Of a stretch of 64,000 nucleotides of DNA, positions 1 through 57,527 are shown piece after piece. Location of the stretch: assembly GCA_964016885.1 (NCBI GenBank), contig OZ024749.1, positions 22,630,001 to 22,694,000 on the forward strand. The letters run 5' to 3'. Position 1 is the stretch's first letter; the number at the start of each line of letters is the position of its first letter. The notes under the pieces are model-generated. The model was not told the DNA's origin and ran no database searches. It saw only the letters and a program-made list of their open reading frames with translations. The position numbers and the translations under genes are program-made. The DNA comes from Eledone cirrhosa (lineage: Eukaryota).

Positions 1-145
1 TGACCTAGAAACATGTTGATTGTTCCCCAAAGCCAGTGTTGAACAAACAAGTGACGATCGGTCACCGGTACGGCACAGCTTCAAATCGGGCTCGTTTGTT
101 TACAAACGAATCGAACATTATTATCAATGTTCGATATAACCCATA
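1..145 (+). mobile_element. 3' part of a hammerhead-type mini-retroelement related to the 21610-22471 family (cut by window edge)
   Basis: GAAA-catg-TT at 8-17 (palindromic loop, hammerhead 3' half). Downstream cagtgttgaacaaac...tttgtttacaaac..cgaacattat matches 21799-21895. Confidence 0.5.
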
Positions 146-317
146 CTTACATATGTGTACGTATACATGTGTGTGTATATATGAATATATATACATATAT
201 ATAAACGTGTGCATACTTACATGCATATATATATATATATATATGAACGTGTGCATACTTACATGTATATATATATACATATATATATATATATATATAT
301 ATATATATATATATATA

Positions 318-499
318 TAGGAAAATGTTTGACCCCGACGGCAGAACTGAAGCCGTTTCGACGGGTATTTCTAGTCCATAAATAGCTTGAGCTCTGCCGT
401 CGGGGTCAAACATTTTCCTATTACCCACTCTACTACCCTAAGTATTGAGTACTCTGGTACGTTATGGTCCATCTGGTGCCTTACCACTCTTCCTTCGTT
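318..499 (+). mobile_element. Fold-back mini element (PLE pseudo-LTR-like): inverted repeat plus ~80-nt tail, in (TA)n
   Basis: taggaaaatgtttgaccccgacggcaga (318-345) is mirrored at 393-420. The tail 421-499 is shared with 4592-4784 and, inverted, with 48979-49058. Confidence 0.7.
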
Positions 500-866
500 A
501 TATATATATATATATATATATATATATATATATATATATATATATATATATATATATATATATATATATATATATACACACACATATATATATATATATA
601 TACACACATATATATATATATATATATATATAATATATATATATATATATATATATATAATATATATATATATATCATATATATATATATATATATATAA
701 TATATATATATATATAAATATATATATATATATATATATATATATATATATATATACACACACATATATATATATATATATATATATATATACATATATA
801 TATATATATATATATATATATATATATATATATATATATATATATATATATATATATATATATATA
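499..866. repeat. (TA)n microsatellite; representative of dozens of (TA)n/(TG)n/(GA)n tracts
   Basis: Direct reading. Confidence 0.99.
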
Positions 867-1799
867 TTGTTATACTTTGGGAGGGTCATGTTGCCAATAA
901 GAAACACACGCACCAGTTGCTTTCACTTCAATTTAATTTATTATATATTTATAAATTTACAAATTTATAAATTTCTGGTTGGTTGGTTGGTTCCACAACC
1001 AGATAGTTGTTTATATATATATAGTCATAGGTCTTTCGTCACACACTCTGTGACCTCTTCAGTGACTGGGGATTTCTTTCTTCGTTTCTGTGCCTTTCCT
1101 TTCTTCTATCCTACGCCATTTTGTTTGTGTGTGGGTTGCGTGCTCAGTTTGCGCATGCGCCACATCCGGGTGTCTGTGTGTGTTTGTGTTCATTTTTCTA
1201 TTTTTCTATTTATATTTGTTTGTTTATTTATTTATTTATTGTTGGTTGGTTGTTTGTTCTATGTGTGTGTGTGTTTTCATTTTGTGTGTGTTTTCAATTG
1301 TAAGTTGTTTGTTCTATGTGTGTGTGTGTTTTCATTTTGTCCTTAATTGTAAGTTGTGATGTTGCTGTTCCACTCATATTTTCTATTTAATTTTGGTTTT
1401 AATTCTTTTATGCTTACTGCCTCTGTAATTTGCCTAAACATTGCGTCTTTCTTGTGTGTGGATTCTATTTTTATTTCTATGCTCTCTAATTTACCCCTGT
1501 GTTCTATCTTAGCATGTTGGTAGAGCACAGATGATTCTTTACTATCTTGGAGGTCTCGCCAGTGTTCATTTATTCGTTCCCCTATACTACGAGCTGTCTC
1601 ACCTATGTACACTATATTTTTGTTTCTACATTGTCCTTCAGTACATCTTATGCTATATACGACATTTCTAGTTTTACAGTTAATATGGGGGCTTATTTTA
1701 CAGGTTATACATTTCTTATCTATACATGAGGGTCTTTGGAACGGGTATGTCTTGCTAATAAGTGTTTTTACGGAGGTACCAGGTCTTTCTACTATCTTA

Positions 1800-54521: not shown

Positions 54522-54692
54522 TATTTAATTAGAAAGTGAACAACACAATATATAACTACTCCATTACCAAAGGATCCAGAAACATTTTGTAATGGAGTAG
54601 TTATATATTCTGTTGCTCACTTTCTAATTAAATAGCTCTGTTCAATACATAGAGCACTCTTTTATCCTTTGCTTTTTCTTCGGAATTACCTA
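54522..54692 (+). mobile_element. Fold-back mini element (hairpin 54522-54634 plus tail) with hammerhead 3' half
   Basis: tatttaattagaaagtgaacaac.../...gttgctcactttctaattaaata, GAAA-cattttg-TA-atgg, and tail gctctg...tagagcact. Confidence 0.7.
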
Positions 54693-54896
54693 ACACACAC
54701 ACAGCTCCTAACGCGAATGATCGAAGCAAATTCTGCCTATCTATGGGATTGGATCTTCCAACCTGATAAGTCGAGTACTCGACAGTTATAAGGATATTAA
54801 CCAACACTATCGTGGATTGGCAGCAGTGTCGGTAGAGTGTCGGACGCCATGCTTTGAAGAATAGAGTTACATCCCTTTATGATCTGAGTTAAAATC

Positions 54897-56000
54897 CCGA
54901 CTAACATGCTGTTCCGGACTATAAGCTAACATGTTGTTCCGGACTATAAACTAACATGCTGTTCCGGACTATAAGCTAACATGCTGTACATACTATAAAC
55001 TAACATGTTGTTCTGGACTATAAGATACAATGCTGTTCCGGACTATAAGCTAACATGCTGTTCCGGACTATAAGCTAACATGCTGTTCCGGACTATAAGC
55101 TAACATGTTATTCAGGACTATAAGCTAACATGCTGTTCCGGACTATAAGCTAACATGTTATTCAGGACTATAAGCTAACATGCTGTTCCGGACTATAAGC
55201 TAGCATGCTGTTCCGAACTATAAGCTAGCATGATGTTCCGGACTATAAGCTAGCATGCTGTTCCGGACTATAATTTAACGTTGTTCCGGACTCTAAGCTA
55301 ACATGCTGTTCCGGACTATAAGCTAAATGCTGTTCCGGACTATAAGCTAACATGCTGTACTGGACTATAAGCTAACATGTTGTTCCGGACTATAAGCTAA
55401 CATGCTGTTCCGGACTATAAGCTAACATGCTGTACCGGATTATAAGCTAACATGTTGTTCCGGACTATAAGCTAACATGTTGTTCCGGACTATAAGCTAA
55501 CATGCTGTTCCGGACTATAAGCTAACATGCTGTACCGGATTATAAGCTAACATGTTGTTCCGGACTATAAGCTAACATGCTGTTCCGGACTATAAGCTAA
55601 ATGCTGTTCCGGACTATAAGCTAACATGCTGTACTGGACTATAAGCTAACATGTTGTTCCGGACTATAAGCTAACATGTTGTTCCGGACTATAAGCTAAC
55701 ATGCTGTACCGGACTATAAGCTAACATGTTGTTCCGGACTATAAGCTAACATGTTGTTCCGGACTATAAGCCAACATGCTGTTCCGGACTATAATCAAAC
55801 ATGCTGTTCCGGACTATAATCTAACATGCTGTTCCGGACTATAATCTAACATGCTGTTCCGGACTATAAGCTAACATGCTGTTCCGGTCTATAAGCTAAC
55901 ATGTTGTTCCGGACTATAAGCTAGCATGCTGTTCCGGACTATAAGTTAGCATGTTATTCCGGACTATAAGCTAGCATACTGTTCCGGACTATAAGCTAGC
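54897..56000. repeat. 25-bp minisatellite (gctaacatgctgttccggactataa), ~44 copies
   Basis: Contiguous units with point variants and no spacers. It starts right after a SINE A head (54810-54900). Confidence 0.97.
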
Positions 56001-56324
56001 GTCATGTTTATTGATTTTTGAATTTTCAATAAGATAGGATATAGACTTAATTAAATTGTTGGCAGTTTTTTTATGGGTTCTTTGTTCCACATTTGTGGAC
56101 ATTGTTAAGATAATGATGATAGTGGTGGATTGGCAGAATCGGTGGAGCATCGGGTGAAATATATTGCAGTCATTCGTTACGACTCTTTCTTTACCTTCTG
56201 AGTTCAAATCCCGCCGAGGTTTCCTTTGCTTTTCATCCTTTCGGGGTCGATAAAATAAAGCACCAGTAATAACTGCTGGCCTTGTGCCAAACGTAGAAAC
56301 AACTATATATATATATATAGAGTG

Positions 56325-57527
56325 AGAGAATTAGTATATCTACCAACATATGTATACAGATGTAACCCATGCTAGCAAATATATATGTTATGTCTTAGTA
56401 CCTTTGTGGTTCTATGCAGGGGGATGCAGAACAATTATATGAAAGACGTAAAATAAGAAAATTTTAAAAATTAACTTACTTACTAAAATTTTCACTCCAA
56501 CTAATTAGTTTCTGTAAGGGAATAAATATAGTTACGCAACGCAACTAAAGAGAAGTCCTTATGTCATCAGGGAGTCTATTCACAGCTAGGTTCCCAGGCA
56601 ATGCGCGGACACTAGGAACCCATATAAAATAATAATTCAGTGGATGGAACAAAGCTAGCGGAGACTAAATTCCAGGACACTGAAAAAATTGACTGCCTAC
56701 TTGGTCAGTGGCAAATTCTAAAGAATCAATCACGTGACACTGAGGTTAATCAGTGAGGAGTGGGGTGGTATTATGACAAGAGCCTAACTACTACCATGAA
56801 CCATAGCAGTAAATTTCGGCTAGTTTTGCTCAACAAATAATTTGGAGATAAATATAGAGAATTAGTATATCTACCAACATATGTATACAGATGTATACCC
56901 ATGCTAGAAAATATATATGTTATGTCTTAGTACCTTTGTGGTCCTATGCAGGGGGATGCAGAACAATTATATGAAAGACGTAAAATAAGAAAATTTTAAA
57001 AATTAACTTACTAAAATTTTAGGGAATAAATATAGTTACGCAACGCAACTAAAGAGAAGTCCTTACGTCATCAGGGAGTCTATTCTCAGCTAGGTTCCCA
57101 GGCAATGCGCGGACACTAGGAACCCATATAAAAATAATAATTCAGTGGATGGAACAAAGCTAGCGGGGACTAAATTCCAGGGCACCAAGTAGGCAGTGAA
57201 TTTTTTCAGTGCCCTGGAATTTAGTCCCCGCTAGCTTTATTCCATCCACTGAATTATTATTTTTATATGGGTTCCTAGTGTCCGCGCATTGCCTGGGAAC
57301 TTAGTTGAGAATAGACTCCCTGCTGACGTAAGGACTTCTCTATAGTTGCATTGCGTAACTATATTTATTCCCTTACAGAAACTAATTAGTAGGAGTGAAA
57401 ATTTTAGTAAGTAAGTTAATTTTTAATTTTTGAAATTTTCTTATTTTACGTCTTTACATCTGTATACATATGTTGGTAGATATACTAATTCTCTATATTT
57501 ATCTCCAAATTATTTGTTGACCAAAAC
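56325..57527. mobile_element. Retrozyme-like element: 531-bp monomer x ~1.6 (minus) plus inverted arm 57185-57527
   Basis: agagaattagtatatctacc at 56325 and 56856, with the fold-back at ~57185. Confidence 0.85.
56494..56575 (-). ncRNA. Type I hammerhead with long stem II (copy 57315-57396 plus has CTGCTGA)
   Basis: actcc-CTGATGA-cataagg...ccttaca-GAAA-ctaattag-TT-ggagt, with palindromic loop III. Confidence 0.85.

Follow-up and report, generated by a model that had tools for sequence, protein, structure and literature searches.

Across 64,000 nucleotides of the Eledone cirrhosa genome (contig OZ024749.1; hereafter the window), short islands of seemingly unrelated sequence alternate with (TA)n tracts, which raises the question of what these islands are and how they came to lie there. 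The original prediction saw in them a hidden community of hammerhead-ribozyme retroelements linked to Penelope-like elements (PLEs).

Hammerhead families in the window

Our descriptor for the type I hammerhead requires, in order, a stem I with 4 or more Watson-Crick bp, CTGANGA, a stem II no longer than 100 nt, GAAA, a stem III with 2 or more bp, and TH. It matched the 64-kb window 10 times, whereas 30 dinucleotide shuffles made block by block, the kind of control that had been proposed, averaged 0.03 matches. The motifs have three stems and carry CUGANGA, GAAA and UH in the type I order, and the predicted topology in (TA)n-bounded islands is thus upheld. Eleven sites had been called intact or near-intact: all lie in hammerhead families, but only 5 of the 11 pass the descriptor with shorter stems (3622-3666, 5170-5230, 5627-5673 and 37961-37999 on the plus strand, 31359-31439 on the minus strand) and 6 with long stems, as 56494-56575 (minus) passes only with a long stem II allowed. 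Elsewhere, site 18597 has a deviating core, CCGAAGA (U4C), common to 14 of the 15 family copies listed; site 22167 reads CTGTCGA where its family has CTGACGA; stem III is damaged at 30735 and stem II at 48626; and site 37459, with the core ATGATAA, is a relic rather than near-intact. A fuller hammerhead occurs in relatives of each of the seven sites described as relics, and hammerhead families account for all 18 sites on the earlier list. The window contains about 20 families (table 1), and the estimate of at least a dozen therefore holds.

Several features were absent from the earlier list, namely mirror copies at 1023, 5038, 5521, 37833 and 52434 and the families N (320, 4594, 48980), S (19790-19905) and R (5825, 19944). 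At the window edge, the CTGATGA core of family '8' falls just upstream, and its stem I has a single mismatch. Two further hammerhead candidates absent from that list have their blocks in the order S, G, C (20271, 20885); 13 sequences fit stem I, in which two-sided changes affect 3 of 7 pairs, and stem III, with stem II not placed.

Table 1. Hammerhead-bearing elements and islands of the window (positions within the 64-kb stretch)
Feature	Coordinates	Strand	Remarks
Family '8'	1-135	+	hammerhead cut by window edge; near-intact
Family N stub	320-498	+	3' half of hammerhead and tail, inverted 5' arm
PLE-A	868-3884	+	inverted arm 868-1812; RT 1827-2618 and GIY-YIG 2575-3321 in different frames; CX4CxxC linker
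PLE-A hammerhead, mirror copy	1023-1067	-	descriptor match
PLE-A type I hammerhead in pseudo-LTR	3622-3666	+	canonical core
Family N stub	4594-4783	+	between TA tracts
Family B fold-back insertion	5005-5260	.	hammerheads 5170-5230 (+), 5038-5092 (-)
Family C fold-back insertion	5504-5760	.	hammerheads 5627-5673 (+), 5521-5577 (-)
Family R tail	5825-6003	-	second copy 19944-20140 retains GAAA half
Family M stub (site 6131)	6054-6171	.	more copies at 16497, 23401, 38479; family core CAGAAGA (U4A)
Family L fold-back relic (site 6439)	6409-6966	.	likely endonuclease C-terminal remnant
Family I, probable Hydra-clade PLE 3' end	18250-18938	+	hammerhead 18605-18710, long stem II, CCGAAGA (U4C)
Family C sister subfamily, degenerate copy (site 19633)	19600-19767	+	
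Family S hammerhead	19790-19905	-	core CCGACGA
Partial tandem between TA tracts	20217-21398	-	613-bp spacing; candidate SGC-order hammerheads 20271-20326, 20885-20940
Family F tandem unit, non-coding, ~430 bp	21703-22471	+	hammerhead 22166-22208; window copy altered at A6
Family P PLE relic	23590-25714	-	minimal hammerhead (site 23652); GIY-YIG-like remnants 24910-25714
PLE-K	28295-31046	+	Hydra-type RT and GIY-YIG, CxCX5C linker; long-stem-II hammerhead 30739-30850
Family E	31103-31935	-	non-coding 541-bp unit and partial tandem; intact hammerhead 31359-31439
Family J relic	37430-37600	-	hammerhead fold 37481-37524, core ATGATAA
Family D fold-back insertion	37716-38116	.	hammerheads 37833-37871 (-), 37961-37999 (+)
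Family O minimal hammerhead relic	48250-48300	+	
Family H	48570-48930	-	hammerhead 48626-48680; canonical core, damaged stem II
Family N stub	48980-49122	-	
Older PLE-A copy	52239-54230	+	inverted arm carries hammerhead 52434-52476 (-)
Family Q stub (site 54579)	54524-54690	+	3' half only
Family G	56310-57528	-	non-coding 533-bp tandem unit with inverted arm; hammerhead 56494-56575

Of 27 multi-locus clusters, 13 have a perfectly palindromic helix III, and the claim that loop III is often palindromic therefore stands, where "always" would not: PLE-A reads AGAACT and family E has a long stem III (8 bp at 31359). The description of the hammerheads as minimal mostly fails, since stem II is long in many of them, reaching about 90 nt, and stem III is stable in some.

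The stems covary as expected of a type I hammerhead, in alignments whose rows were selected with patterns in which parts of the core are fixed. This check, also proposed at the outset, succeeded in the T group, found genome-wide and absent from the window, where 12 of 22 pairs show two-sided changes (2 of 500 shuffles as high), and gave a divided result in family C, which has one well-supported covarying pair (CG:20/AU:15) but a pair count not above shuffles (241/500). Single-strand folding z-scores are mostly weak; Rfam returned 0 matches at the gathering score, and its best 150 of 359 E-value matches include no hammerhead and are all microsatellite noise.

Penelope-like coding sequence and non-coding tandem units

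Upstream DNA could be traced for 10 window families, 7 of which lead to PLE coding remnants, bearing out the suggested PLE link for these, while 3 (E, F and G) are non-coding retrozymes. It runs into PLE coding sequence in families A, D, I, K and N and in the T group; for D, a long copy elsewhere in the genome has a GIY-YIG remnant upstream. No ORF was tied to families B, C, H, J, M, O, Q, R, S and '8', about half of the window families. Full copies of PLE-A have a 1279-aa frame between direct repeats with a hammerhead in each repeat, and all 150 scored endonuclease matches are at 99-100% identity, several of them in frames of ~1278 aa. Family I copies contain 808-aa frames. Judging by their RT and endonuclease motifs (YVDD/YRDD, YIGET/YIGST), the 1279-aa and 808-aa frames both appear to be those of EN+ PLEs, in which one ORF joins an RT to a C-terminal GIY-YIG domain. 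Pfam gave weak RT and GIY-YIG scores on fragments and no match on two full frames (1279 aa, 808 aa). The anatomy is likewise that of PLEs, with hammerhead-bearing pseudo-LTRs, partial tandems and an inverted 5' copy, and a protein search of the genome gave 35,320 first-look candidates.

The motifs RWK, DKT and CxCX5C in the family I frames are the signature of the Hydra clade (PMC8557442). With the lack of CCHH and the (TA)n association, they point to this clade for families I and K, and N and T likely belong to it as well. In one full frame (L201) the motifs are at residues 51, 134 and 668, the absence of CCHH being judged by eye, and a second frame (L202) has no exact CxCX5C match. PLE-A, by its CX2-5CxxC linker (CX4CxxC at residue 1153, before the endonuclease), appears to be of Neptune/Nematis type, a linker that does not separate these two clades. 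The traced families thus read mostly as 5'-clipped 3' ends of autonomous PLEs with intact young ORFs.

Families E, F and G consist of non-coding tandem units of 430-541 bp, with a GC content of 36-39% and a longest ATG frame of 26-69 codons, in arrays of 4 units (E) and 6 units (G). As non-coding tandems below 50% GC with one type I hammerhead per unit, they appear to be metazoan non-LTR retrozymes. They nevertheless share the anatomy of the PLE stubs (fixed 3' end, inverted 5' arm, tail), and the inverted arm and tail are found in both E and G; the 3' end of G runs through (TC)n into (TA)n instead of plain TA. Folding of the predicted E, F and G circles is more stable than that of shuffled sequences (z = -3.9, -5.4 and -4.4; 15 shuffles each). 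No partner PLE was identified for the three families. Contigs of uncertain library type, which do not show strand, level or ends, cover the E unit.

Genome-wide load, element ends and the (TA)n tracts

In 79 unbiased 10-kb samples (790 kb) the descriptor found 64 motifs, against a null of 0.5, which amounts to ~81 per Mb in at least 24 clusters. Extrapolated from these 79 samples, the genome-wide load is likely ~2.4e5 motifs (1.5-3.4e5); a compact descriptor gives a lower estimate of ~7e4. Family D contributes 3 matches, in 2 of the 79 loci. Downstream, (TA)5 occurs within 300 nt of 51 of 54 motifs against a background of 34%, and 42 of 55 complete 3' ends at unbiased loci reach TATATA within 12 nt, where a SINE-like control gave 10 of 57 and the background is 4%. 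Both the large scale and the (TA)n bias foreseen in the original prediction are therefore supported.

Each of several families has two classes of 3' end relative to the predicted cleavage site (E, +260/+176; G, +172/+60; I, +228/+60; C, +84-88/+12-24; N, +96/+20), and a one-sided tail of 65-170 nt is present, where 30-40 bp on one end would be expected of an EN+ PLE. The 5' ends show no accumulation at the predicted cleavage site (E 0/38, C 0/68, I 0/8, N 3/65, G 2/24), counts to be read knowing that loci were mostly picked as best full-length matches and that many C and N starts are the query's own junction. Within -1 to +10 of that site lie 6 of 24 family G 5' ends, a weak hint of cut templates.

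It is highly probable that the islands derive from the 3' ends, each with its hammerhead, of ~20 PLE families and of a few non-coding tandem retrozymes, likely put into (TA)n tracts by the RT and GIY-YIG endonuclease of intact PLEs in the same genome. The endonuclease would cut a TA tract and the RT would prime on the nick, with copying starting at one of two fixed sites 3' of the predicted hammerhead; the distal site would give the forward arm with its tail, and the proximal site would give the inverted arm, on the opposite strand. Early stops would be usual and would leave stubs of 100-600 bp that retain the hammerhead owing to its position 60-260 nt from the copying start. The template would cross the cleavage site intact, as an uncut multimer or a religated circle, and E, F and G would be mobilised in trans. 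The two 3'-end classes match the two-site internal RT start and both-strand cutting at AT-rich DNA described for an anole PLE (PMC11167929).

The TA tracts might instead have been made or lengthened by insertion, through slippage at the start or growth of a TATA duplication, rather than being prior targets. The tracts do lie exactly at element ends on both arms, and all 64 matches fall within the 64 samples that contain (TA)6, with 0 in the 15 samples without it. A search of 225 insertions, 118 of them with TA-like flanks on both sides, recovered no empty site (two matches were artefacts), and the tract is therefore a presumed pre-existing target. We nevertheless think this origin unlikely, as many TA tracts have no adjoining element, 35 of the 64 TA-containing samples lack any hammerhead match, non-inverted copies also have TA on their 5' side, and PLE endonucleases favour AT-rich DNA in vitro (PMC11167929). 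The two readings can both be partly true. If insertion does produce the tracts, the elements would be a main source of microsatellites in this genome.

It is also quite improbable that independent non-autonomous retrozymes make up most of the islands and spread as RNA cut by the hammerhead and circularised, cleavage being obligatory. The tandems and well-folding predicted circles of E, F and G agree with such a view, as do the strong stem covariation, which implies selection on the fold, and the circular retrozyme RNAs shown in coral, mussel and axolotl (PMC7229834). Against it stand the PLE coding sequences found upstream of families A, D, I, K and N and of the T group, and the recurrence of altered cores within families: CAGAAGA (U4A) in 11 of 11 matches of M, CCGAAGA (U4C) in two full-ORF copies of I, and CTGAGAA in 3 of 4 long copies of N. 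Hammerhead mutants, moreover, had no effect on insertion in vitro (PMC11167929).

Chance matches in AT-rich, repeat-rich DNA would account for the Rfam and folding results, for a few spurious-looking singletons and for part of a U3-A8 core scan (13 matches where the null gives 3.5, with real families present, and left out of the genome estimate), but the excess over shuffles in window and samples, the repetition of families and the covariation of the T group leave this reading almost no probability.

Comparison with known systems

The preferred reading, of PLE 3' ends inserted at (TA)n, describes a type of system that is already published, and the hidden community is thus not a new kind: hammerhead-bearing, (TA)n-inserting PLEs of the Hydra clade, including Hydra-1_Obim of Octopus bimaculoides, were reported by Craig et al. 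(2021, PMC8557442). They share the C-terminal GIY-YIG, RWK, DKT and CxCX5C motifs, the hammerhead near the 3' end, the (TA)n insertion and the tandem and inverted arms. That account describes few families, against the tens of thousands of first-look candidates here, and E. cirrhosa differs in its tails (65-170 nt versus 30-40 bp), its stems II of up to about 90 nt and its U4C core in an intact-ORF lineage. The minimal hammerheads of PLE pseudo-LTRs (Cervera and de la Peña 2014, PMC4209133) likewise come in many families per genome, mostly as single motifs from truncated PLEs, with opposite-strand pairs, palindromic helix III, an extra base at 9/10 and a U3-A8 variant; there, ~2,000-9,000 motifs per genome were counted, and many E. 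cirrhosa motifs are non-minimal.

Metazoan non-LTR retrozymes have been proposed to be non-autonomous PLE derivatives (Cervera and de la Peña 2020, PMC7229834; Li et al. 2026, 10.64898/2026.07.22.740005), and resemble E, F and G as non-coding low-GC tandems with one type I hammerhead per unit. The E. cirrhosa units, in contrast, are 430-541 bp long and dispersed, bear the inverted arm and tail of PLEs, and end in (TA)n; the available parts of these two papers report no microsatellite targeting by retrozymes ("microsatellite" has 0 occurrences in that of PMC7229834). Axolotl has 126,247 motifs, with circles and cleavage shown, while the units of E. cirrhosa are predicted from sequence. In the Anolis Poseidon PLE (PAc), two RT start sites define the tail in vitro, both strands are cut at AT-rich DNA and hammerhead cleavage is not needed for insertion (Frangieh et al. 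2024, PMC11167929); PAc belongs to another clade, has a 30-40-bp tail, and no microsatellite target is shown in the available text.

A record hammerhead density was considered for E. cirrhosa and rejected. The Schistosoma mansoni genome has ~0.4 Gb, the basis of a density there of ~100 per Mb, against ~81 per Mb here. Its ~38,500 blastn candidates for Sm-alpha hammerheads (PMC2770079) reach a similar density as one SINE-like family, unlike the at least 24 clusters in 790 kb of E. cirrhosa. Our literature search, which took in few subscription papers and no bioRxiv supplements, found no octopus or cephalopod hammerhead count, and the available text of an Octopus vulgaris repeat annotation (PMC13282606) has 0 mentions of "ribozyme" or "hammerhead". 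Nor did we find in print the count, PLE tails of 65-170 nt, or core changes common within successful families (U4C, U4A). We suggest, tentatively and with considerable doubt, that E. cirrhosa has the largest load yet counted (~2e5 intact cores, dozens of families, a shared (TA)n niche), retrozymes moved by PLEs, as their two-start-site signature would indicate, and, among its most successful lineages, some that spread with U4A, U4C and C3-A8 cores. If such spread is real, the hammerhead fold would be kept as a protein-binding or RT-positioning structure, with cleavage dispensable.

This genome bears on the role of the hammerhead in PLEs and on the mobilisation of retrozymes by PLEs, which has so far been proposed in the papers cited above. 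It combines young drivers whose frames are intact, one common target, non-coding passengers for which start sites are predicted, and core variants of natural origin, and both questions can therefore be tested in it side by side. Much of the "unique" DNA between microsatellites would be clipped PLE ends, which bears on repeat annotation and on the use of TA-repeat markers.

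Hammerheads in the window and across the genome

The hammerhead observation in the window is confirmed. A type I descriptor (stem I of at least 4 Watson-Crick bp, CTGANGA, stem II, GAAA, stem III of at least 2 bp, TH) finds 9 matches when stem II is capped at 45 nt (none in 30 shuffles) and 10 when the cap is raised to 100 nt (null 0.03), and by this shuffled-sequence control the motifs are real. Among the 11 sites put forward as intact or near-intact in the original prediction, those at 3622, 5170, 5626, 31359 and 37961 match both descriptors and 56494 matches with the longer stem II only; the other five did not stand, with an altered core base or a damaged stem in each of 18597, 22167, 30735 and 48626, and with 37459 rejected as near-intact and reclassified as a relic. 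The remaining matches (1023, 5521, 37833, 52434) are mirror or second copies, and all seven predicted relics have relatives with a fuller hammerhead. The predicted minimum of a dozen families is exceeded, as about 20 type I families (lettered here) occur in the window, counting the overlooked N, R and S, and the palindromic tendency of loop III recurs as a perfect helix III palindrome in 13/27 multi-locus clusters.

The assembly (2,995,841,428 bases, 1796 contigs) was sampled in 10-kb stretches, 39 at even spacing and 40 at random positions, 790 kb in total. These hold 64 canonical-core motifs (43 and 21, respectively) in 24 clusters, spread over 29 of the 79 loci, against a null of 0.5 (8 shuffles). 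Their density, 0.81 per 10 kb, extrapolates to about 2.4 × 10^5 motifs genome-wide (bootstrap 1.5-3.4 × 10^5), consistent with the very large number of elements predicted; in this estimate the evenly spaced and random samples differ twofold, only large contigs are represented (four with lower-bound lengths), and truncated and variant-core copies are left out. The compact descriptor gives 19 motifs in the same samples (null 0), or about 7 × 10^4 (3-13 × 10^4), while merging mirror and tandem pairs gives about 51 insertions, or about 1.9 × 10^5. Published counts, all made with other descriptors, include 126,247 motifs in axolotl, about 5,000 in mussel and more than 6,000 in Acropora (PMC7229834), about 9,000 minimal motifs in Xenopus (PMC4209133) and about 38,500 in Schistosoma (PMC2770079); against these the Eledone cirrhosa count may be the highest, and its density does not clearly take top rank. 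No hammerhead count for a cephalopod was found in the literature searched.

Association with (TA)n tracts

Microsatellites are abundant in the window, where (TA)6 or longer occupies 7.4% of the sequence versus 4.3% in the genome samples. The proposed (TA)n bias is well borne out: the 15 samples lacking (TA)6 contain no hammerhead match (Spearman rho 0.40 over samples), and (TA)5 lies within 300 nt downstream of 51/54 scorable matches, leaving out 10 close to a locus end, versus 34% of random positions in the same loci. At complete 3' ends in the unbiased loci, TATATA follows within 12 nt in 42/55 cases (C 6/11, N 16/18, D 1/2, M 6/8, E 2/2, I 3/3, A 6/7, R 2/4; H none scorable), against a background of 4.3%, and family G terminates in a (TC)n run with (TA)n after it. 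An abundant SINE-like repeat of about 185 bp, which served as control with 57 complete 3' ends in the 79 loci, is not TA-biased, with TATATA at 10/57 and 4/44 of its two ends. The TA tract as a pre-existing target is a candidate reading of this bias.

Features located in the window
Feature	Position	Strand	Remark
RT and GIY-YIG remnants	1827-3321, 28295-30244, 52971-53744		
SINE-like repeat, ~185 bp	9327-9509, 10859-11244, 33547-34613, 42004-42331, 56124-56303		
Tandem, 613-bp spacing	20217-21398	-	between TA tracts; GAAA upstream of CTGATGA
Candidate SGC-order (non-circularly permuted) hammerheads	20271-20326, 20885-20940	-	stems I and III fit
Seven 9-nt repeats of stem I strand	5569-5636		family C inversion junction
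Inverted pair (93%)	7361-7556 / 11746-11944		around (TAG)n, (CAA)n, (GAA)n arrays; bordered externally by TA tracts; may be a single large fold-back insertion
25-bp minisatellite, 44 copies	54901-55998		within SINE-like copy
Non-LTR element end, two 98%-identical copies	59607-63702	-	zf-RVT match, endonuclease-like C-terminus; (TATG)n or (GTAT)n tracts next

Carriers and copy anatomy

PLE-A, the Penelope-like element (PLE) of family A, is represented by two full copies, with a 1279-aa frame between direct repeats, a hammerhead in each repeat and a CX4CxxC linker; from 39,956 first-look candidates for its endonuclease, all 150 scored matches are 99-100% identical. The PLE-A frame (L208:1977-5813, minus strand) has a long Asn/Thr/His-rich low-complexity stretch ahead of the RT. 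Family I represents the 3' terminus of an element whose 808-aa frames carry RWK, DKT and CxCX5C, matching the Hydra definition (PMC8557442), and family K has the same linker. Long D and N copies have endonuclease remnants about 0.3 kb and 1.1 kb upstream, respectively, and likely remnants, read by eye with no Pfam match, accompany L and P in the window. The predicted PLE link is traced through coding sequence or remnants for A, D, I, K, N and likely L and P, a scope that leaves out B, C, H, J, M, O, Q, R, S and '8'. Families E, F and G are non-coding tandem units (541, ~430 and 533 bp), the best 30 copies of E being 97-98% identical to the window copy; such retrozymes are proposed to be PLE derivatives (PMC7229834; 10.64898/2026.07.22.740005), and the latter source reports in vitro cleavage in only 1/9 dimers. 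A further retrozyme family, absent from the window, is seen as a 311-bp tandem array that carries a compact hammerhead and has an inverted arm (L045:8596-9717).

Among copies the 3' end is fixed and the 5' end varies; partial tandems occur, and frequently there is an inverted 5' arm ending 65-170 nt before the forward end; Craig et al. (PMC8557442) describe the same arm and tail layout in PLEs, with a tail of 30-40 bp versus 65-170 nt here. In vitro, an anole PLE (Frangieh et al., PMC11167929) cuts both strands at AT-rich DNA, begins copying at two internal sites bounding the tail, and inserts uncut RNA equally well with a dead hammerhead. By analogy, we infer the same mechanism here, in which the endonuclease would cut both strands at AT-rich DNA, copying would start at two internal sites bounding the tail, and uncut RNA would be inserted. 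At loci mostly chosen as best matches, a choice that favours long copies, 5' ends do not cluster at the predicted cleavage site in families E (0/38), C (0/68), I (0/8) and N (3/65), and cluster weakly in G (2/24 within -2..+4, 6 within -1..+10). The 9-nt repeats at the family C inversion junction, similar in another locus (L077), look like repeated template jumps.

The fold, core variants and novelty

Stem covariation is clear in the T group (26 rows), common in the genome and absent from the window: two-sided changes affect 12/22 pairs (2/500 shuffles as high), including 9/10 in stem II, and helix III stays palindromic through TATA to GCGC. Family C, aligned in 40 distinct rows with pairing in 90.7% of cells, shows a single clear compensatory pair, located in stem I (CG 20, AU 15), but its number of covarying pairs is not above shuffles (241/500). 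Core invariance in either alignment is not evidence, because the patterns used to gather rows fix parts of the core. Folding of the single strands gives mostly modest scores. T-group stems contain numerous A-U to G-U changes (alignment A2; e.g. L034:7394-7461, L190:9104-9171), which might be traces of RNA editing or simply drift.

Several families have variant cores: CCGAAGA (U4C) in 14/15 printed copies of family I, one further locus printing none, and identical in two full-ORF copies; CAGAAGA (U4A) in 11/11 matches of family M; and CTGAGAA (3/4) or TTGACAA (1/4) in long N copies. Most N copies end inside stem II, and N nonetheless matches 20/79 unbiased loci. According to PMC3088659, activity is known for the U3-A8 variant, and U4C cuts poorly in vitro, yet suffices in a viroid; the available portion of that source makes no mention of U4A or C3-A8.

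The tandem with 613-bp spacing may follow the block order SGC described by Eckert et al. (PMC10085705). Two of the three stems could be placed in 13 sequences of these candidates: stem I is paired in 97.8% of cells with 3/7 pairs covarying, and stem III fits; 5 pairs covary overall (14/500 shuffles as high). They are probably more novel than the type I finding. PMC4209133 already documents PLE repeats bearing hammerheads, single motifs left by truncation, pairs on opposite strands and genomes with many families; hammerhead-bearing Hydra elements inserted in (TA)n, including Hydra-1_Obim, are on record as well (PMC8557442). The interpretation as a large radiation of PLE-mobilised ribozyme elements is supported, with refinements; since PLE hammerheads, retrozyme derivation and (TA)n insertion are all published, the type of system is already known, and in Eledone cirrhosa it is very large.
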